DNA of 64,000 nucleotides, taken from NCBI GenBank assembly GCA_012439925.1, contig GCA_012439925.1_4519.1, one strand, 5' to 3'. The notes beneath the pieces were generated by a model, which saw only the letters and a list, made by a program, of their open reading frames with translations, did no database searches and was not told where the DNA came from. The position numbers were made by a program, and so were the translations under genes. Positions 2,755 through 48,338 of this stretch are shown here, one piece after another (position 1 is the stretch's first letter; every line of letters starts with the position of its first letter). This DNA comes from a phage.

Positions 2755-3164
2755 TGGCTAATAAATTCCGCGTTAACTCATGGTACCAATTTAAAGATAA
2801 ACGTGCCCAAGAAGAGTTTATTAAGGACCACACCGATAATGGGATTTATGCACGACGTCTTGGCATGGAACCATTTAAAGTATTAGATGTTGACCATCTT
2901 GGTCGTCCTACTAAAATTGTGACATCTACTGGCATGGTTGGATACGCAACAGGCGGTGATATTCTTGATGAAAACTTTATCTGGCTCTCCACGAATGAAG
3001 CAGAGTTCTTTGACGAAGTTGGAAATCCATATCAAGCGTCTGAAGAGCAAGACTCTGGAGAACTTGATGAATTGTCTGAATTTCCGGTGATGACGATTAC
3101 TATCAAAAATAACGACCAGGCATGGTCGTTGTATCAAATGTTGAAAGCACATTTTAAGGAATAA
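2754..3164 (+). CDS. hypothetical protein
   Basis: Start at MANKFRV with GGAAGGA RBS, overlapping the previous stop (TAATG). Confidence 0.5.
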
Positions 3165-3166
3165 TA

Positions 3167-3346
3167 ATGCCGTTATACGACTATAAATGCCAATCTGAAG
3201 ATTGTGGTCATGAATATGAAAAAATTAAAAGGATTTCTGAACGAGAAAACGATGTTTGCCCTGAATGTCATTGTCTGTCTACTCGTCGGGTTTCTGCTCC
3301 TAAACATGTGAACGGTGGTTTTTACGACTTACTTAAAAAGGGTTAA
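3167..3346 (+). CDS. FmdB-like zinc-ribbon small protein (59 aa)
   Basis: Not in ORF track (<60 aa); MPLYDYKCxxxxCGH ... CPECH two-CxxC pattern typical of FmdB-type zinc ribbons; tightly packed between flanking ORFs. Confidence 0.5.
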   Translation: MPLYDYKCQSEDCGHEYEKIKRISERENDVCPECHCLSTRRVSAPKHVNGGFYDLLKKG

Positions 3347-3348
3347 TT

Positions 3349-3774
3349 ATGGCTTTTAAAGGTTTTGAAGTTGGTAAGAAATATCATATTATCAAAGGTC
3401 AAGAAGATAATTTCTTGAGAATTCTTAATACGACTGGTAAACGTCTTAATACTAATCTGCATACTACTTTATTGTCCAAAGATTTTATTGTGGAAGAGAT
3501 GATTGGTTACGGTGTTTCGGTTATTGCTGTAGAAGCCGTAGGCGATTATGGCCGAACTATTCATAGTATGCAAGGTGATATTCTGCTTTATGGTGCAGAA
3601 TTTAAATTCTTTGAAGAAGTTCAGGAACCAGATACAGCTGTCGATTTCAAAAAAGGCTCTATAGAATTTGTTGATGGTTCGGTGATCGTATCAGGCGATG
3701 TGGTCATTACAGTTAAAAGTGAACAAGGGCGTTTGGCTGCAATTGATGCACTTCAGAAAATTAAATTTAAATAA
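3349..3774 (+). CDS. hypothetical protein (occupies the goF-like position upstream of gene 39)
   Basis: 141-aa ORF; assignment is by position and size only. Confidence 0.45.
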   Translation: MAFKGFEVGKKYHIIKGQEDNFLRILNTTGKRLNTNLHTTLLSKDFIVEEMIGYGVSVIAVEAVGDYGRTIHSMQGDILLYGAEFKFFEEVQEPDTAVDFKKGSIEFVDGSVIVSGDVVITVKSEQGRLAAIDALQKIKFK

Positions 3775-3795
3775 GGGCTTCGGCCCTTTTTGCTT
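3775..3795 (+). terminator. intrinsic terminator
   Basis: GGGCttcgGCCC hairpin followed by TTTTT. Confidence 0.65.
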
Positions 3796-3837
3796 TAGAT
3801 TTCGGATGATAGAATACCTTCATAACGAGGAGACAAC

Positions 3838-5655
3838 ATGATTAAAAATGAAATTAAGGTATTGTCAGATGTAGAACATATTAAGAAACGTAGTGGTATG
3901 TATATTGGTTCTTCTGCTAAAGAAGCCCACGAGCGTTTTTTGTTTGGTAAATATCAACAAGTTGAATATGTTCCTGGTCTGGTTAAATTAATCGATGAGA
4001 TTATTGACAACTCGGTTGATGAAGCTATTCGTACATCATTTAAGTTTGCAAATAAAATTGATGTGCAAATTAAAAATAATCAAGTTTCGGTGGAAGATAA
4101 CGGACGTGGTATTCCTCAAGGTTTAGTTACCGACCAAACAGGTGAACAAATTCCTGGGCCTGTAGCAGCCTGGACTATTCCAAAGGCCGGTGGTAACTTT
4201 GGCGATGACTCTGAACGCAAGACTGGTGGTATGAACGGCGTCGGGAGTAGTTTAACTAATATCTTCTCCACGTTGTTTACAGGCATCACGTCAGATGGTG
4301 AAAATGAAATCACTGTTAACTGTTCAAACGGAATGGAAAACAAATCATGGTCTTCTAAGAAATCTAAAGGTAAAGGCACTAAAGTAATCTTCACTCCTGA
4401 TTTCACTTCATTTGAAGAGCATAATTTATCTCAAATTTATTTAGATATTACTTTAGACCGACTTCAAACATTGGCAGTCGTTTATCCTGATATCAAGTTC
4501 ACATTTAATGGTAAAAAGGTTGATGGTAATTTTAAACGATTTGCTAAACAATTTGGTGAAGATAACATCATTCAAGAAAATGATAAAGTCTCTATAGCAT
4601 TCACAACATCACCAGATGGCTTCCGTCATTTAACTTATGTGAATAACATCCATACTAAAAATGGTGGTCATCATGTTGAATGTGTAATGGATGATATCTG
4701 CGAACATCTTTTGCCCGGTATTAAAAAGAAATATAAGGGTATTGAAGTCACTAAAGCTCGTGTTAAAGAATGTCTCACAATGTTGATGTTTATTAGAGAC
4801 ATGAGCAACATGCGTTTTGATTCTCAGACTAAAGAACGTTTAACGTCAACGTATGGTGATATTCGTAATCATATCCAATTAGATGCTAAGAAAATTGCTC
4901 AGGCGCTTCTTAAAAACGAAGCCTTGATTATGCCTATTGTTGAAGCAGCATTAGCTCGTAAATTGGCGGCAGAAAAGGCTGCAGAAACTAAAGCAGCTAA
5001 AAAGGCAACTAAAGCTAAGGTTCATAAGCATATTAAAGCTAACCAATGTGGTAAAGATGCAGATACGACATTGTTCTTAACAGAAGGTGATTCGGCAATT
5101 GGATATCTCATTGATGTTCGTGACCGTGAACTACACGGTGGATTCCCATTACGTGGTAAGGTGATGAATAGCTGGGGTATGTCATATGCTGATATGATGA
5201 AGAACAAAGAGCTCTTTGATATCTGTGCTATCACAGGTCTTATTCTTGGTGAAAAGGCAGAGAATACGAACTATCGTAATATTGCAATTATGACTGATGC
5301 CGATCATGACGGCCTTGGAAGTATTTATCCTGCTTTGCTTGCTTTCTTTAGTAATTGGCCTGAATTGTTTGAACAAGGACGTATTCGCTTTGTTAAAACA
5401 CCTGTAATTATTGCACAAATTGGCAAAACTCAAAAATGGTTTTATACTGTAGCTGAGTATGAAGAAGTTAAAGATACGCTGCCTAAGCATAGTATTCGAT
5501 ACATCAAGGGATTAGGCTCCCTTGAAAAGTCAGAGTATCGTGAAATGATTCAGAACCCTGTGTACGACGTAGTTAAACTTCCTGAAAATTGGAAAGAACT
5601 CTTTGAAATGTTGTTGGGTGATGATTCAGAACTTCGTAAAGAATGGATGTCCTAA
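3838..5655 (+). CDS. 39: DNA topoisomerase II large subunit (GyrB-like ATPase plus Toprim), single fused ORF
   Basis: 605 aa; GHKL ATPase motifs (DNSVDEAI, VEDNGRGIP) and Toprim (TEGDSA, MTDADHDG); T4 gp39 plus gp60 equivalent in one ORF. Confidence 0.9.
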   Translation: MIKNEIKVLSDVEHIKKRSGMYIGSSAKEAHERFLFGKYQQVEYVPGLVKLIDEIIDNSVDEAIRTSFKFANKIDVQIKNNQVSVEDNGRGIPQGLVTDQTGEQIPGPVAAWTIPKAGGNFGDDSERKTGGMNGVGSSLTNIFSTLFTGITSDGENEITVNCSNGMENKSWSSKKSKGKGTKVIFTPDFTSFEEHNLSQIYLDITLDRLQTLAVVYPDIKFTFNGKKVDGNFKRFAKQFGEDNIIQENDKVSIAFTTSPDGFRHLTYVNNIHTKNGGHHVECVMDDICEHLLPGIKKKYKGIEVTKARVKECLTMLMFIRDMSNMRFDSQTKERLTSTYGDIRNHIQLDAKKIAQALLKNEALIMPIVEAALARKLAAEKAAETKAAKKATKAKVHKHIKANQCGKDADTTLFLTEGDSAIGYLIDVRDRELHGGFPLRGKVMNSWGMSYADMMKNKELFDICAITGLILGEKAENTNYRNIAIMTDADHDGLGSIYPALLAFFSNWPELFEQGRIRFVKTPVIIAQIGKTQKWFYTVAEYEEVKDTLPKHSIRYIKGLGSLEKSEYREMIQNPVYDVVKLPENWKELFEMLLGDDSELRKEWMS

Positions 5656-5683
5656 GCTCCTTAGGGAGCTTCATTTTAATTTT
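5654..5683 (+). terminator. stem-loop / weak terminator after gene 39
   Basis: AAGCTCC-ttag-GGAGCTT hairpin followed by T-rich tract. Confidence 0.4.
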
Positions 5684-5697
5684 AATAAGGCTTAATT

Positions 5698-6798
5698 ATG
5701 AAAGTTATGTTTATCCCATCTCGCGCAGTCCCATTTAACCCAGAACGTGTACAAGGTGGTCTTGAAGCAGTACATTTAAATGTGTTGAAATATCTTGTGT
5801 CCATCGGTGCTGATATTGATTATATCGGCTTTGATAATGACACATTTGGTGATTGGAAGGTTAATCATCATCCTGTTGGTCATCTGACTAAATTCAGTCT
5901 AGGTATGAGTTATACTATGGCTCGTAAGATTGTTGAACTAGCCGGCATTAATGAGTACGATTTCGTTGTTACAATGGAACCGACCAAACTAACCGTTCAG
6001 GCAATTAAAGACGCAGGTCTTTCTAAAGTTCATAAGAATTTTATGGCAACACCATTTGAACCAGTATCTCGTGGCATTGTTCAAATTTGGGACCAGACTA
6101 TTCAAATTCATAAGAACGGTGGTAAGAGTTATGCTCCTACTAAAGCCTTCCGTGAATTTGAACGTAAATATTGTTATATGACTTCAGGTCTGACTGACAA
6201 AATTGATTATGATTATTGGCGAGCAAATCCGTTGTTTGAAGCCGAAGATTATCCGGTTATTTGTTTGAATGAGAAACCTGAAGTTCTTCCGGCGACTGAT
6301 CTGATTATTAGTGCACAACGTTATGACACTAAAATGCGTCGTACTGATGTTGCTCTTGAAGCGATTAAAGCACTAGGCGAAAATGGTATTGGTTATTGTC
6401 CTAGTAAATGGGCACCACCGGCTAAGTATCCTGTTATTATTGATGCTCCACACGGTGAAATCATGGAACGTCTTAAAACAGCTAAAGCACTTATCAATAC
6501 GTGTCCTGACACGGGTACGGTAGAGAATAGTTCTATTGAAGCCATCTCTAAAGGTGTCCCTGTAATTCAGTTAGTTTTTAAGGATTATCCTCATGCGACA
6601 TTCGAATACGACCCAGATACTGTGCGTGTAGAAATTGATTCCTCTACTCCTAAGAAAGAAGTAGTTGCGCTTTACACAAAAGCTGTATTAGAATTCACTG
6701 ACACATACGAAGCTCGAGTTAAACGTGCTGAAGCAGTATGGAAGAAGTATAACCGAGATGCAGTTGTTGCGATGTGGGATAAAATCTTCACAGCGTAA
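5698..6798 (+). CDS. putative GT-B fold glycosyltransferase (candidate DNA hydroxymethylcytosine sugar transferase)
   Basis: 366 aa; N-terminal Rossmann-like MKVMFIP...GGLEAVHLNVLKYL and C-terminal E-x7-E-like ENSSIEAISKGVPVI resemble GT4-type glycosyltransferases; located between gene 39 and rIIA, where T4 has no glycosyltransferase. Confidence 0.5.
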   Translation: MKVMFIPSRAVPFNPERVQGGLEAVHLNVLKYLVSIGADIDYIGFDNDTFGDWKVNHHPVGHLTKFSLGMSYTMARKIVELAGINEYDFVVTMEPTKLTVQAIKDAGLSKVHKNFMATPFEPVSRGIVQIWDQTIQIHKNGGKSYAPTKAFREFERKYCYMTSGLTDKIDYDYWRANPLFEAEDYPVICLNEKPEVLPATDLIISAQRYDTKMRRTDVALEAIKALGENGIGYCPSKWAPPAKYPVIIDAPHGEIMERLKTAKALINTCPDTGTVENSSIEAISKGVPVIQLVFKDYPHATFEYDPDTVRVEIDSSTPKKEVVALYTKAVLEFTDTYEARVKRAEAVWKKYNRDAVVAMWDKIFTA

Positions 6799-6890
6799 AT
6801 CCTGAATAGCCTGAGGCACTATTACACATAAGATGATAGATTATATGGTCTTTAGTAATAGTGCCCTAGGAATCTACTGAAGAGAATATT

Positions 6891-11095: not shown

Positions 11096-11125
11096 GTTTA
11101 CAACTAAGTAGGACTATGATATAGT
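11096..11125 (+). promoter_or_regulatory. T4-type early promoter with embedded inverted repeat
   Basis: GTTTAC 11096-11101; -10-like TATAGT near 11120; inverted repeat AGGACTA / TAGTCCT spans the -10. Confidence 0.5.
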
Positions 11126-44995: not shown

Positions 44996-45119
44996 TATAA
45001 ATAACTATATGAAGAGAACACTCTTCTAAGCGGTAGCCTACAACTGAGAGACTTGTCGAAAGAAGGTGAAATTCAGACGAACGTGGCTACTAAATATTAT
45101 CTCGAATTGAGAATTTAAA

Positions 45120-45368: not shown

Positions 45369-45663
45369 GTTTTAGGTGATTCGCTACCTTAAGTGCGGCT
45401 AGAAAATCGAGGAGCCGTCGAACTGTCTGATTAATGATTTGCGAATCATTATAGTTTTAAGGCCCCGGCAGTTTTACGGTGTACCTCTTGAATGTATTTT
45501 GTACTATCACGCGTCAGAAAAAGGTTATCTGTCTAAGTCGTGGTTGGTATGATGACGGGTTTATGGTTATCCTGTCGTTAAATATCCAAAACCTATGTTC
45601 CCCTTGAGGGCTTGCGCAGGCAATGTCAATAAGTCCTGCATTTTCATTTAAAGAGAATTTATA

Positions 45664-45843: not shown

Positions 45844-45848
45844 TTTTA

Positions 45849-45872
45849 GGGAGACTTCGGTCTCCCTTTTGT
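45849..45872 (+). terminator. intrinsic terminator
   Basis: GGGAGACttcgGTCTCCC followed by TTTT; identical to the hairpin at 30834. Confidence 0.7.
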
Positions 45873-45903
45873 GCGTTTAGGGCAGAAAAAGTTTAAAAAA
45901 GAT

Positions 45904-45932
45904 GTTTACTCTCCTGTAGGATGTGTTACTAT
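45904..45932 (+). promoter_or_regulatory. T4-type early promoter
   Basis: GTTTAC 45904-45909, 17-bp spacer, TACTAT 45927-45932; shares GGATGTGTTA-TATAGACTT with the cassette at 30884. Confidence 0.55.
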
Positions 45933-45974
45933 AGACTTGTACCACCTAATCAATAAAACAACCTGGAGAACAAA

Positions 45975-46343
45975 ATGAAAATCAATCTGAACTCATACAT
46001 CAAATGTAAAGACCACGATGGTTATAAAGCTATCGAAATTAAAGAATTCCAGTGGATGTTATACAAAGAGCAATTTGAGTTCGTAGGTTGTATGACCCCT
46101 GAAGGTCCTTCTGATGATTTCTCTTGGAAAATTGTGTTAGCAAACTTTTTCACAGGTGACACATACGAATTAAAAACTATTATTACAGGTAAAATTCGCT
46201 CAGAAACATATGTTGACGAAGAAACTGGTTACTCTGAAGATGTCACATGGTATCAAAATGGACGCATTACAGCAGATAACCTGATCGAAAAAATGAAAGC
46301 CAAAGGTGTTTTAAATTTAGACAATTGGATTAAAGTTGCATAA
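45975..46343 (+). CDS. hypothetical protein
   Basis: 122-aa ORF with RBS GGAGAA. Confidence 0.5.
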   Translation: MKINLNSYIKCKDHDGYKAIEIKEFQWMLYKEQFEFVGCMTPEGPSDDFSWKIVLANFFTGDTYELKTIITGKIRSETYVDEETGYSEDVTWYQNGRITADNLIEKMKAKGVLNLDNWIKVA

Positions 46344-46347
46344 AACA

Positions 46348-46376
46348 GTTTACTTTGGTACAGGTTATGTTATTAT
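46348..46376 (+). promoter_or_regulatory. T4-type early promoter with embedded inverted repeat
   Basis: GTTTAC 46348-46353, TATTAT 46371-46376; inverted repeat GGTACAGG / CCTGTACC flanks the -10. Confidence 0.55.
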
Positions 46377-46417
46377 AGACCTGTACCAACAAACAACTTA
46401 AACATCTGGAGAATAAA

Positions 46418-46783
46418 ATGAACTACATCAACTTCGAACGTAAATATGTTTCTAACGGTATCGCTGGTTCTTCTGAAGTTATTTGCTTATGGAAACATAA
46501 AAATGGTTCAGTATGTGAAATTGAGCAGTATATGACTCCTAATTACGTTTATATGCGATTTGAAAATGGCATCACGGTTTCAATCACGATGGAAGGTTCC
46601 AACTTCAAAATTGCATTAGATGACGATTTCCGTCAACGTGATTTAGGTACTCATCCTTGCTGGAACGGTGTTAATCGTAAACTTCTGGTTAAAACTTGGA
46701 TTCGTCATATCCTGAGTAACCGAGCTAAACCTGAACACCTGGAAGCAATCTTTGATGTAGTTCTGAACGAATTCGATATCTAA
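46418..46783 (+). CDS. hypothetical protein
   Basis: 121-aa ORF with RBS GGAGAA. Confidence 0.5.
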   Translation: MNYINFERKYVSNGIAGSSEVICLWKHKNGSVCEIEQYMTPNYVYMRFENGITVSITMEGSNFKIALDDDFRQRDLGTHPCWNGVNRKLLVKTWIRHILSNRAKPEHLEAIFDVVLNEFDI

Positions 46784-46790
46784 TTTAATT

Positions 46791-46806
46791 GGGAGCTTCG
46801 GCTCCC
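46791..46806 (+). other. TTCG-loop hairpin directly upstream of an RBS (no U-tract)
   Basis: GGGAGCttcgGCTCCC followed by ACTGAGGAAATT-ATG. Confidence 0.5.
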
Positions 46807-46818
46807 ACTGAGGAAATT

Positions 46819-47433
46819 ATGTTTAAAGTTAATACTTTTTATAAAATGAATTTTAAAAATGGGGATATTACTCCACGCCTTAAAAACATGTTCTCATATG
46901 ACCTTATCGAGCCTTTTGAAGTTTTAGAAGTTACTGATGCTGGCTCAGTTTGTGAAATTAGAACTTCTGAAGGTAAAATTTATCAGGCTGGTGTTGGTAA
47001 ATTCAGTAATTGTTTTACTTTAATATTCTCGACTGATTTAGATGAGCATTTTATTGAATGTCCTAACCCTAAGGTCCATGAAGTTCCACAACAAGAAACT
47101 AAGAAAAATGGCCCGCATGAATATACGAAGGTTGAAACTCCTCACGGCGATATGTGGCGTCATAACTCTCCTTTCGGAAGTAAAGGAACATTTGCTCAAC
47201 TGCCTAAACCGTATGACGATGAAAAATACATCGTCGCCTTTTTATCTGAACAGGGTACTCAAGACCGTGGATGTCAACGAAGTGGTTTACTAAGTGAACT
47301 TGAAGCTCATAACCAAGCACGTGAATTCGTTGAGAAAAATCCTGGTTCTGAAGCTCTAGTCATGAAAGCAATTACTCAATATATCACTGCTCAACCTGTT
47401 GTTCATCCGGTAGAAATTAATTTCATTAAGTAG
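46819..47433 (+). CDS. hypothetical protein
   Basis: Start trimmed to MFKVNTFYK (RBS GAGGAAA); 204 aa. Confidence 0.5.
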   Translation: MFKVNTFYKMNFKNGDITPRLKNMFSYDLIEPFEVLEVTDAGSVCEIRTSEGKIYQAGVGKFSNCFTLIFSTDLDEHFIECPNPKVHEVPQQETKKNGPHEYTKVETPHGDMWRHNSPFGSKGTFAQLPKPYDDEKYIVAFLSEQGTQDRGCQRSGLLSELEAHNQAREFVEKNPGSEALVMKAITQYITAQPVVHPVEINFIK

Positions 47434-47463
47434 TTTACATCCAAGGACGGATTAGAGTATAAT
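47434..47463 (+). promoter_or_regulatory. T4-type early promoter
   Basis: GTTTAC 47434-47439, 18-bp spacer, TATAAT 47458-47463; similar to the cassette at 353. Confidence 0.55.
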
Positions 47464-47487
47464 GATTTCTTTAGTAAGTGGAAAAAT

Positions 47488-47685
47488 ATGAAATTTTTAA
47501 TAGCACAAACAGTCCAATTAAAAGGTGTTGGAATTCCTGGGGTGATTTTTAAAGTTCTCCCTGAATTTAAAACCGCCGCTGGAATTATCAATGAAGCGTA
47601 TGCTGTTCAATGGGTTGATTGGACTTCTGACATACGTATGGGTAAAGAGTTATCTCCTATTAAAGGGTTGAAACATGTTGAATAA
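47488..47685 (+). CDS. hypothetical small protein
   Basis: 65-aa ORF. Confidence 0.4.
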   Translation: MKFLIAQTVQLKGVGIPGVIFKVLPEFKTAAGIINEAYAVQWVDWTSDIRMGKELSPIKGLKHVE

Positions 47686-47887
47686 ATTAATCCAGAAATT
47701 GTTAGGTATAGAAATGGTTGAAGTTACGTATCGTGTGACTGATGTAAGCCCATGGGCCCGAAAAGTTGAACCATATACTAAAACAATTAAAATGCTGAAA
47801 TATGACGGTGGATTATCTATCAAAGACCGTCTACCGGCTTATGGTCATTGGGCTGATGTTGAAATTATAAGTGTTAAAGATGTCTGA
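47675..47887 (+). CDS. hypothetical small protein
   Basis: 70-aa ORF overlapping its neighbours. Confidence 0.4.
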   Translation: MLNKLIQKLLGIEMVEVTYRVTDVSPWARKVEPYTKTIKMLKYDGGLSIKDRLPAYGHWADVEIISVKDV

Positions 47888-48338
47888 GTTAGAGATTAGA
47901 AGCAATTTTAGATGGCCGTCATGTGCATTAAGTAATTTTGCCCAGTGGCCTTTCGTTATGGATGGTATTCAATTCGGAGGTCTTGAAGGATTTCTCCAAG
48001 GATGTAAGGTGAAAAATGTTGAACAACAAAGACGTATATTTAGGCTGTCAGGACTGGCCGCACAGCAAGCTGGAAGGTCTTATGCAAGAGCTCAGGACCA
48101 TGGGACTCTCTTCTGGTTAGGAGTTCCATTTTCAAGATACTCTGAAGCATGGAAAGAATTATATACAAATGCATATTTTGAAGCAGCGATCCAAAACAAG
48201 GGGTTTCGCGATGCCTTACAAGCCTCTAAAGGAAAAATTTTGAAGCACAGCATGGCCAGCCACCTAACAAAAGATGATACAATATTAACTGAAGCTGAAT
48301 TTATTGATGTGTTAAACCTATTAAGAGACTCTTTATGA
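47871..48338 (+). CDS. NADAR (YbiA/DUF1768-like) domain protein
   Basis: 155 aa; LSNFAQWPFVMDG...GLEGFLQ resembles the E. coli YbiA core FSNFAAWPIKVDG...SEHYFQ. Confidence 0.5.
   Translation: MLKMSELEIRSNFRWPSCALSNFAQWPFVMDGIQFGGLEGFLQGCKVKNVEQQRRIFRLSGLAAQQAGRSYARAQDHGTLFWLGVPFSRYSEAWKELYTNAYFEAAIQNKGFRDALQASKGKILKHSMASHLTKDDTILTEAEFIDVLNLLRDSL

Follow-up and report, generated by a model that had tools for sequence, protein, structure and literature searches.

Promoter units, hairpins and mosaic alleles in the 30.8 to 30.4 gene cluster of a T-even phage

Five small early genes between rIII and DNA ligase

The DNA that we analysed, here called the window, is a stretch of 64,000 nucleotides from a Mosigvirus, an RB69-like T-even phage. 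Five open reading frames on its plus strand were all confirmed where the preliminary description had placed them, each has phage homologues, and comparison with other phages identifies them as the orthologues of T4 genes 30.8, 30.7, 30.5 and 30.4, together with 30.6A. The cluster is already known, being part of the T-even group of small early genes between rIII and DNA ligase that is annotated in relatives. The order rIII-30.9-30.8-30.7-[slot]-30.5-30.4-30.3-30.2-30.1-ligase is kept in Tequatrovirus, Mosigvirus, Dhakavirus and Gaprivervirus, and the anchors rIII, 30.9, 30.7, 30.5, 30.2 and ligase follow one another in the same order in Karamvirus and Jiaodavirus. In T4 itself, 30.8 to 30.4 (T4p211-T4p207, in the rIII-to-gene 30 region) have the same order and strand as in the window, with amino-acid identities of 37% for 30.8, 95% for 30.7, 64% for 30.5 and 46% for 30.4. 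T4 30.4-30.8 are all classed as 'early RNA / early protein' (PMC9697503 supplement), which bears out the view of the block as early accessory genes. The GC content of the five genes, 33.9-37.2% against 37.7% for the window, is that of the genome background. No credible Rfam family was detected in the region, and an NCBIfam search returned nothing.

Gene 30.8 (45975-46343, plus strand, 122 aa) encodes a member of Pfam family PF06019 (Phage_30_8): residues 2-121 align to model positions 3-123 of 124 with 149.2 bits (E 6.7e-44), against a gathering cut-off of 25 bits for the whole-protein score over the full model. A PDB sequence search with gp30.8 found no relatives.

Gene 30.7 (46418-46783, plus strand, 121 aa) is the most conserved member of the block and is present in 997 phage records. 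Its product matches PF06919 (Phage_T4_Gp30_7) over its full length with 176.8 bits (E 1.5e-52; gathering cut-off 27 bits for the whole-protein score over the full model). Comparison with the T4 gene gives dS 0.67 and dN 0.032, a dN/dS of about 0.05 that denotes purifying selection. Recent transfer was considered as a source of the high identity to T4 and was rejected because dS is 0.67. The AF2 model of gp30.7 is confident (pLDDT 91), and an informative structural relative of it was not found.

The slot that holds 30.6 in T4 and RB69 is occupied in the window by 30.6A (46819-47433, plus strand, 204 aa; phrog_17531, E 1e-145). The program-called reading frame begins at TTG 46789; homologues (TuIa; P0001, 204 aa) use the ATG at 46819, behind GAGG. 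In T4, 30.6 (95 aa) and 30.5 are translationally coupled and 30.5 lacks a promoter, whereas in the window a promoter stands between the unrelated 30.6A and 30.5. Homology between 30.6A and 30.6 was rejected: BLASTP of gp30.6A against gp30.6 of T4 and RB69 gave E values above 1 (1.5 and 3.2), and hhalign of the family profiles gave a probability of 0.5%. The closest match is gp30.6A of TuIa (CAF21717), which is 95% identical over 204 aa and has the same flanking genes, 30.7 and 30.5. The TuIa locus AJ621579 ('30.7 gene, 30.6A gene and 30.5 gene') is only 1.4 kb long and is filed under Tequatrovirus; its arrangement is identical to that of the window, with protein identities of 95-97%. Its submitters annotated, in order, a promoter, 30.7, a stem-loop, an RBS, 30.6A, a promoter, an RBS and 30.5, although their -35 and -10 labels appear to be swapped.

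An exhaustive protein search for 30.6A yielded only 6 representative clusters, and the gene is found at full length in 114 records. The protein has two domains, of about residues 1-90 and 95-195; profiles of both found no matches in PDB or Pfam, and an AF2 model from the single sequence (pLDDT 36) was unusable. Homologues of the C-domain occupy other slots in SP18 and CkP1. The family is small and two-domain and has multiplied in the rIII-ligase region of Karamvirus, a pattern that would be consistent with a diversifying factor in host interaction or counter-defence.

Gene 30.5 (47488-47685, plus strand, 65 aa; phrog_1690) is present as a divergent allele. Its product aligns with T4 NP_049819 over 64 of 65 aa (E 3e-28), and the T4 gene also precedes 30.4. 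T4 30.5 is reported to bind host Ppk and to trigger bNACHT11 (bioRxiv 10.1101/2024.12.17.629029); by analogy, gp30.5 of the window phage probably binds host polyphosphate kinase too, with about one third of its residues differing from those of the T4 protein. The description of all five genes as being of unknown function therefore mostly still applies, and is slightly outdated for 30.5. Gene 30.4 (47675-47887, plus strand, 70 aa; phrog_2042, E 6e-34) overlaps 30.5 by 11 nt and 30.3 by 8 nt, and is orthologous to T4 30.4 (E 6e-21). For gp30.5 and gp30.4 (65-70 aa), a PDB sequence search found no relatives and Pfam no family. The adjacent gene 30.3 encodes the anti-DarT NADAR protein AdfN (bioRxiv 10.1101/2024.07.11.602962), which the window phage, unlike RB69, carries at full length.

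Early promoters and the hairpins between units

T4-type early promoters have a -35 GTTTAC(A/T), a sigma-70 spacer of 16-18 nt and a -10 TAnnnT, usually with TGn and an A/T-rich upstream region, and lie on the early strand ahead of a Shine-Dalgarno (SD) sequence and ATG. Three sites in the block, all on the plus strand, conform to this sequence pattern, as the preliminary description had noted. P30.8 (45904-45932) combines GTTTAC at 45904-45909 with TACTAT at 45927-45932 across an N17 spacer; it has TGn and an A-rich upstream region, and an early-type promoter occupies this position in T4 as well. P30.7 (46348-46376) has GTTTAC at 46348-46353, N17 and TATTAT at 46371-46376, again with TGn. It is conserved in all relatives examined, and its -35 and -10 signals are annotated in the TuIa record. 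P30.5 (47433-47463) reads (G)TTTACA-N18-TATAAT; the stretch TTTACA-N18-TATAAT at 47434-47463 matches 11 of the 12 consensus positions, and the -35 overlaps the 30.6A stop codon, whose last base is the G of GTTTAC. P30.5 is restricted to genomes with 30.6A and is missing from RB69 and from T4, whose 30.6 and 30.5 overlap.

Over the whole window the motif GTTTAC-N16-18-TANNNT occurs 18 times, 16 of them on the plus strand, against an expectation of 3.3 +/- 1.7; none of 100 shuffles reached 18. MotA-box (middle) and late-promoter motifs were not found inside the block. Promoter positions are conserved in T4 and six genera. We infer the activity of P30.8, P30.7 and P30.5 from their sequence and from T4.

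The predicted transcription units are 30.8 by itself, 30.7 with 30.6A, and 30.5 through alt.1, the last a run of seven genes, tightly packed or overlapping, headed by P30.5. The preliminary description had spoken of one promoter per gene; this holds for three of the five genes, whereas the other two have none and P30.5 serves a long run. The contrast that it drew with operon-like packing elsewhere proved to be a matter of degree, because tandem single-gene promoter units also occur elsewhere in the window, at 11096 and 11608 for instance.

Three structures separate these units: a conserved terminator, a UUCG hairpin and, on either side of the P30.7 start site, the arms of an inverted repeat. 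At the left boundary of the block, 30.9 is followed by an intrinsic terminator (45848-45871, plus strand) of the form AGGGAGAC-UUCG-GUCUCCCU and then a U-run. Its fold of -14.1 kcal/mol (z = -3.9) was equalled in none of 200 shuffles; the hairpin and T-run are found also in T4, RB69, Dhaka-, Gapriver-, Karam- and Jiaodavirus, and the ATK47 record annotates the hairpin as a terminator. The second structure (46790-46807, plus strand), a UUCG-tetraloop hairpin without a U-run, is the TTCG hairpin of the preliminary description and does precede 30.6A; it is followed by the SD GAGG (46810-46813) and the slot-gene ATG. It folds with -13.1 kcal/mol (z = -3.2) and is the annotated stem_loop of the TuIa record. 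T4 and two Karam/Jiaoda phages, UFV01 and KPV15, have kept the hairpin and the sequence 'ACTGAGGAAA' ahead of the slot gene; neither is seen for dhaeg and SP18, whose compared stretches were truncated by over-extended ORF calls.

The third structure is an inverted repeat at P30.7 (46355-46389, plus strand), with the core GGTACAGG at 46357-46364 and CCTGTACC at 46380-46387. Its 5' arm lies within the promoter spacer and its 3' arm just past the -10, so that the two bracket the expected transcription start. The fold is -19.5 kcal/mol (z = -3.4), and the duplex of the spacer with downstream sequence has z = -4.9. Other lineages share the stem architecture, with unrelated stem sequences. In the window the 3' arm stops 22 nt before the ATG and leaves the SD uncovered, whereas the SD is covered by this arm in Karam-type relatives and by the corresponding arm of the window promoter at 1890. 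Around P30.8 and P30.5 there is no significant excess of structure (z = -0.8 and -0.4; spacer/downstream duplex likewise not significant), so that the support for insulation comes from P30.7 and the two plain hairpins.

Mosaic alleles and the origin of the layout

Pieces of the block have clearly been swapped between phage lineages, to judge by nucleotide and protein comparisons, and the mosaicism is real. In 30.8 the window carries a Dhaka/Gapriver-type allele, its product being 91% identical to that of dhaeg and 86% to that of SP18, but only 57% to that of RB69. The coding sequence is 80-93% identical to a Dhakavirus and 55-75% to RB69, whereas identity to RB69 reaches 97-100% in the promoters on either side and falls only within the coding sequence. 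These comparisons indicate a different allele from that of RB69, with breakpoints at both flanking promoters. The same promoters lie in a 73-nt direct repeat (family D1), whose left copy (45888-45960, plus strand) comprises the promoter and leader of 30.8 and whose right copy (46332-46404, plus strand) contains P30.7; the copies are 71% identical.

The second exchanged piece is a segment that lacks an RB69 counterpart (46826-47671, plus strand, by blastn breakpoints) and holds 30.6A, P30.5 and 30.5. Its two halves occur in record sets of similar size, 114 for 30.6A and 113-116 for P30.5/30.5, and the record counts indicate that the whole, about 850 bp long, is inherited as one unit, which is present in about 114 phage records. 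Among the promoters, only P30.5 travels with a lineage-specific insert. A third piece is a patch in the centre of 30.4 (47719-47803), 61-68% identical to RB69 and 85-93% to L016 and L023. By this evidence alleles are exchanged between lineages with breakpoints at conserved regulatory junctions, namely promoters and SD/ATG; the 30.4 patch has its breakpoints within coding sequence. Some Dhakaviruses have an extra ORF that is bordered by gene-end repeats and not by promoters.

This arrangement agrees with the PeSL (promoter-early stem-loop) model of cassette shuffling in T4-type phages (Arbiol et al. 2010, PMC2839356; Comeau et al. 2014, PMC4122927). A PeSL is an intergenic element in which an AT-rich stretch and SD with ATG are combined with a sigma-70-like early promoter, for which the T4/PST consensus is TTTACW-N17-TAYWAT, and with a stem-loop that either precedes or overlaps the -10 (PMC2839356, PMC4122927); the window has the same elements. 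Promoter and stem-loop coincide at P30.8, with the 30.9 hairpin upstream, and at P30.7, with a stem over the -10 (z = -3.4 to -3.9); neighbouring PeSLs resemble one another, as do the repeat copies that flank 30.8 and bound its allele swap. Both settings are hyperplastic, with adjoining genes that differ between close relatives. Unlike the markers of recent indels in that model, however, P30.8 and P30.7 are ancient conserved fixtures, and P30.5 has no significant stem-loop. PeSL mini-circles have been demonstrated in RB49 and phi1 (PMC2839356).

Overall, we consider it highly probable that the block is the Mosigvirus version of the 30.x cluster in a plastic rIII-ligase region, combining promoter units, insulation by hairpins, recombination patches and takeover proteins. 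The units would be transcribed by host RNA polymerase immediately after infection. On read-through RNA from upstream the hairpins would act by attenuation or 3'-end stabilisation, and would occlude the SD sequence where the 3' arm covers it, so that each unit would be expressed mainly from its own promoter. Promoter and leader sequences of about 70-100 bp would double as homology patches for recombination during co-infection, as in the PeSL model, which would explain both the 30.8 allele swap and the replacement by the 30.6A-P30.5-30.5 segment. The small proteins would be non-essential host-takeover or counter-defence factors. Plain homologous recombination in conserved DNA could also yield a mosaic with no special role for the promoters; the 30.4 patch and the extra ORF of some Dhakaviruses speak for it.

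The junctions might instead be mainly DNA recombination linkers, used in the excision and integration of PeSL mini-circles, with the hairpins as DNA-level signals that have little role in RNA. The coincidence of the 30.8 breakpoints with two promoter regions, the direct repeat around that gene and the mini-circles between PeSLs in RB49 and phi1 (PMC2839356) would all suit such a reading. However, the stems keep pairing through G-U wobbles (L019, L032), which are workable in RNA and not in DNA, the U-run of the 30.9 hairpin is typical of an RNA terminator, and some mosaic breakpoints lie within genes. We therefore regard this reading as possible but doubtful; it is compatible with the preferred explanation rather than exclusive of it.

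The preliminary description had taken the promoter layout as what mosaic insertion of independently acquired cassettes would produce. Mosaicism is borne out by the 30.8 allele and the segment absent in RB69; acquisition of five moron-like cassettes, each bringing its own promoter, appears very unlikely. There are indeed three promoters within 1.5 kb, the slot gene and P30.5 are lineage-specific, and genes of the 30.6A type sit in different slots in SP18 and CkP1. Gene 30.8 resembles a lambdoid moron in being a single-gene unit with its own promoter, bounded by hairpins, and the 30.6A unit in being present in some genomes and absent in others. But morons are marked by distinct base composition and absence from most relatives, whereas here GC does not deviate, the genes share their neighbours' orientation, and four of the five occur across genera, with orthologues at a fixed position. 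Synteny between rIII and gene 30 was the check proposed for separate insertions, and the shared order in T4, RB69 and other relatives largely refutes them. The order was also to be weighed against assigned core functions: it is conserved across genera, and core functions have not been assigned. The layout is old rather than a record of independent insertions, because the 30.8 and 30.7 promoters are also in T4, together with the 30.9 terminator and the hairpin and SD ahead of the slot gene. The saturating dS and very low dN of 30.7 point to long vertical residence, and the two genes without a promoter and the seven-gene unit headed by P30.5 do not suit self-contained cassettes. Because of GC content and synteny we rejected a moron-like origin, the same non-moron conclusion as that of Nolan et al. 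2006 for novel ORFs of T4-likes (PMC1524935). A chance origin of the ORFs and motifs, or a lack of expression of the small ORFs, has next to no likelihood: two ORFs of 65-70 aa lack a Pfam family, but hundreds of phages have conserved homologues of all five, the products of the T4 orthologues have been detected among the early proteins, and the shuffles speak against chance motifs.

A possible filter on transcript origin, and significance

We also suggest, tentatively and as an idea that we hold to be improbable rather than probable, that inverted repeats straddling T-even early start sites may serve as 'transcript-origin filters'. RNA derived from upstream would fold, and would be attenuated or have its SD hidden; RNA initiated at the promoter would be unable to fold and would be translated. 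All lineages examined retain the straddling architecture at P30.7, and among them the stem takes four unrelated sequences. Leader hairpins that sequester the RBS are known from T4 genes e, soc, 49 and I-TevI (reviewed in PMC3014915). There, as at P30.7 in all lineages, the promoter lies in the 5' strand of the hairpin, and only upstream-initiated RNA folds; those promoters, however, are late ones with a split between early and late translation, whereas P30.7 is an early promoter whose SD is uncovered in the window. If true, the filter would let each early unit function autonomously and be exchanged freely, would extend to early promoters a mechanism so far known only from late ones, and would give PeSL stem-loops a role beyond termination.

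Names for the genes already existed, a 2004-era GenBank record carries annotations of the promoters and the hairpin, and cassette shuffling was published in 2010 and 2014; the discovery value is therefore small and the practical value modest. The analysis supplies correct names for five 'hypothetical proteins' and finds in the window phage the 30.6A/P30.5/30.5 unit and an intact AdfN gene, in which it differs from RB69. Within the rIII-ligase interval gp30.7 stands out, being under strong purifying selection yet without an informative structural relative. The interval itself is confirmed as a search ground for host-takeover and counter-defence genes.

The rIII to gene 30 interval and its genes

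The 3.1 kb around the block (45904-47887) matches 772 T-even phage records in all; more than 100 Mosigvirus genomes, among them p000y, moskry, mar005P1 and ATK47, share 95-98% identity with it. Upstream lie dCMP deaminase, 31.1, gene 31 and rIII, and downstream 30.3, 30.2, 30.1 and DNA ligase (gene 30), so the block falls within the "rIII to gene 30" interval of T4. This interval is annotated in T4 and RB69 with 30.9, 30.8, 30.7, 30.6, 30.5, 30.4, 30.3, 30.2, 30.1 and 30, RB69 lacking 30.5. The five ORFs of the preliminary description are all present, each with conserved homologues: 30.8 (45975-46343; Pfam PF06019, E 7e-44; 37% identity to its T4 orthologue), 30.7 (46418-46783; Pfam PF06919, E 1.5e-52; 95%), 30.6A (46819-47433; phrog_17531, E 1e-145), 30.5 (47488-47685; phrog_1690; 64%) and 30.4 (47675-47887; phrog_2042; 46%).

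30.6A has no T4 orthologue, T4 carrying 30.6 there, and shares 95% identity with the protein that the record of phage TuIa (AJ621579) already calls gp30.6A. That it might be a diverged 30.6 was rejected (BLASTP non-significant; hhalign probability 0.5%). The protein has two domains, and homologues of its C-domain occupy other slots of this interval: in SP18 they lie between 30.9 and 30.8, in CkP1 they follow 30.9. In Karamviruses, up to five paralogues of this two-domain family flank 30.7 on either side (3902-6833 in the CkP1 locus, 2908-4373 in that of UFV01), which suggests a family that is amplifying locally and diverging fast.

In T4, 30.5 co-purifies with the polyphosphate kinase of the host, and the defence protein bNACHT11 has three T4 triggers, of which 30.5 is one. 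gp30.7 is an early protein under strong constraint: its 95% identity to T4 is due to purifying selection (dS 0.67, dN 0.032, dN/dS about 0.05), values that rule out recent transfer as the cause. Among Tequatro-, Mosig-, Dhaka- and Gapriverviruses it is 93-98% identical, its neighbours 37-64%; a search with its confident predicted fold returned no informative relatives. Downstream of the block, 30.3 is AdfN, the NADAR DNA ADP-ribosylglycohydrolase that defeats DarTG1. The RB69 gene is frameshift-truncated (137 aa); the window copy (47880-48338) has the full length of 152 aa and shares 96% identity with T4 AdfN, from which DarTG1 resistance is predicted for the window phage.

Promoters, hairpins and transcription units

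The three GTTTAC promoters proposed for the block were borne out: P30.8 (45904-45932), P30.7 (46348-46376) and P30.5 (47433-47463), each named for the gene it precedes. For the pattern GTTTAC-N16-18-TANNNT, 3.3 occurrences are expected in the window and 18 are present, 16 of them on the early strand. Both the proposed TTCG hairpin, after 30.7 (46790-46807; -13.1 kcal/mol, z = -3.2), and the UUCG terminator of 30.9, with its U-run (45848-45871; -14.1 kcal/mol, z = -3.9), are stable and non-random. The block contains neither a MotA-box middle promoter nor a TATAAATA late promoter, and the PMC9697503 supplement places every one of T4 30.4-30.8 in the early class, by RNA and by protein alike. The label "early accessory block" is fair.

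The claim of one promoter per gene held only in part. With about 15 GTTTAC promoters between genes and about 76 ORFs on the early strand across the window, three in 1.5 kb is dense; but 30.6A and 30.4 have none, and seven genes, packed tightly or overlapping, follow P30.5 (30.5 through alt.1). The real transcription units are 30.8, 30.7 with 30.6A, and 30.5 through alt.1. Similar tandem single-gene units also occur at 11096/11608.

The feature is already known. It fits a published model in which the hyperplastic regions of T4-type genomes abound in composite elements, each about 100 bp long, called promoter-early stem-loops (PeSLs) and made up of a stretch rich in AT, a strong early promoter of sigma-70-like type, a stem-loop upstream of the boxes or overlapping them, and a Shine-Dalgarno sequence with ATG; the elements sit beside variable ORFs and recombine with one another (Arbiol et al., 2010; Comeau et al., 2014). 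The three window sites fit the T4/PST consensus TTTACW-N17-TAYWAT, and these very stem-loops, with their -35/-10 signals and RBSs, are annotated in the TuIa record, where they surround 30.7, 30.6A and 30.5. For RB69, 57 early promoters have been predicted, and the novel ORFs of T4-like phages have been argued not to be moron-like (Nolan et al., 2006).

Age and mosaicism of the block

The observation is confirmed. Its interpretation as a mosaic of independently acquired cassettes is partly supported: it partly rediscovers the PeSL model, but the block skeleton is in fact ancient, and as a record of independent insertions the layout mostly fails. T4 has an early promoter before 30.8 and a near-identical one before 30.7; it also shares the UUCG terminator that follows 30.9, and the hairpin and "ACTGAGGAAA" Shine-Dalgarno before the gene in the slot between 30.7 and 30.5. 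The 30.9 terminator and P30.7 are also found in Dhaka-, Gapriver-, Karam- and Jiaodaviruses. Across 40 loci compared, four T-even genera share one fixed order, rIII-30.9-30.8-30.7-[slot]-30.5-30.4-30.3-30.2-30.1-ligase; in more distant genera the anchors rIII, 30.9, 30.7, 30.5, 30.2 and ligase keep their order, with extra ORFs between them. At 33.9-37.2% GC, the five genes do not stand out from the window (37.7%).

Nevertheless, the mosaicism is real, and its boundaries are informative. Compared with RB69, of the same genus, identity is 97-100% from about 45420 up to and including the P30.8 promoter and leader, 55-75% over exactly the 30.8 coding sequence (80-93% to a Dhakavirus), and again 100% from the P30.7 -10 region onward. 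The promoter/leader regions on either side of 30.8 form a 73-nt direct repeat (71% identity). Collinearity with RB69 ends at 46825, 6 nt past the slot-gene ATG, and restarts at 47672, 3 nt before the 30.4 ATG; RB69 has only 30.6 between these points. In its centre, 30.4 again resembles Dhaka/Gapriver phages more than RB69. P30.5 with the window 30.5 allele, at no less than 90% identity, is present in 113-116 records, and full-length 30.6A in 114; in the other 481 the match starts only at the 30.5 ATG (60-80% identity). These equal set sizes imply that 30.6A, P30.5 and 30.5 are inherited together, as a single unit of about 850 bp, and that no promoter other than P30.5 moves with an insert.

Dhakavirus contigs from IMG/VR (L017, 4690-5005, and L036) carry an additional ORF, about 97 aa long, between 30.6 and 30.5, with a direct repeat of about 25 nt, gene end plus Shine-Dalgarno (…TTTCAGATGAGATATTGAGGTTAAT…, …TTCCAAATGAAATACCGAGGCTAAC…), on either side. 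Neither junction has a promoter, and PeSLs are therefore not the sole insertion route.

Possible regulation and the rIII leader

The block combines conserved early-type promoters and hairpins and a kept gene order with recombination breakpoints at regulatory junctions. The three tandem promoters would give immediate-early transcription by host RNA polymerase, and the 30.9 hairpin would end transcription arriving from upstream. Read-through RNA would be acted on by the hairpin that follows 30.7 and has no U-run, and by an inverted repeat at P30.7. The 5' arm of this repeat is in the promoter spacer and the 3' arm past the -10, so RNA begun at P30.7 is unable to form it. This architecture is kept in four lineages with unrelated stems (GGTACAGG/CCTGTACC; GCTGATTGAGTGT/ACACTCAATCAGC; GGGTGGT/ACCACCC; and, in Karam-type phages, CTCCGTTGTAT/ATACAACGGAG with compensated variants, the Shine-Dalgarno itself being the 3' arm). 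The early promoter at 1890 shows the same pairing of spacer and Shine-Dalgarno as the Karam-type phages: within 1890-1947, 13 bp of spacer, TTCTCCTCTGGTT, are perfectly complementary to AACCAGAGGAGAA, the Shine-Dalgarno region of the gene that starts at 1945 (-22.5 kcal/mol, z = -5.6); the predicted RBS-occluding hairpin could be formed only by read-through RNA. These arrangements recall the leaders that sequester the RBS in T4 e, soc, 49 and I-TevI (PMC3014915), although here the promoter is early. P30.8 and P30.5, when folded, gave no significant structure of this kind. We therefore keep as an idea, not a result, that early-promoter repeats may act as RBS-sequestering-type leaders that fold in read-through RNA alone.

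Between rIII and 30.9 lies a 295-nt non-coding spacer (45369-45663) whose blocks are 93-98% identical to T4, above most neighbouring genes. An indel, about 50 nt long, breaks it, and it has local inverted repeats (for example TAATGATT-TGCG-AATCATTA); small ORFs are called there in some relatives.

The most notable observation lies outside the block: a conserved, covarying and unannotated 64-nt structured element between gene 31 and rIII (45030-45093, + strand), in the rIII leader downstream of a late promoter, TATAAATA (44996). It has three nested stems and a GAAA tetraloop, and its internal loops UACAA and GAAGAACGUG are invariant except for one A-to-C change in the window copy, the only one there (86.5 bits). 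Pairing holds in 97.8% of cells across eight distinct sequences that represent six genera (slid controls, at most 46%), with compensatory changes in 8 of 17 pairs. No Rfam family matched it. In Karam- and Jiaodaviruses the motif is placed between rIII and 30.9 instead. It occurs once in each of 906 phage records, mostly unannotated, and could be a protein-binding operator or other regulatory RNA.
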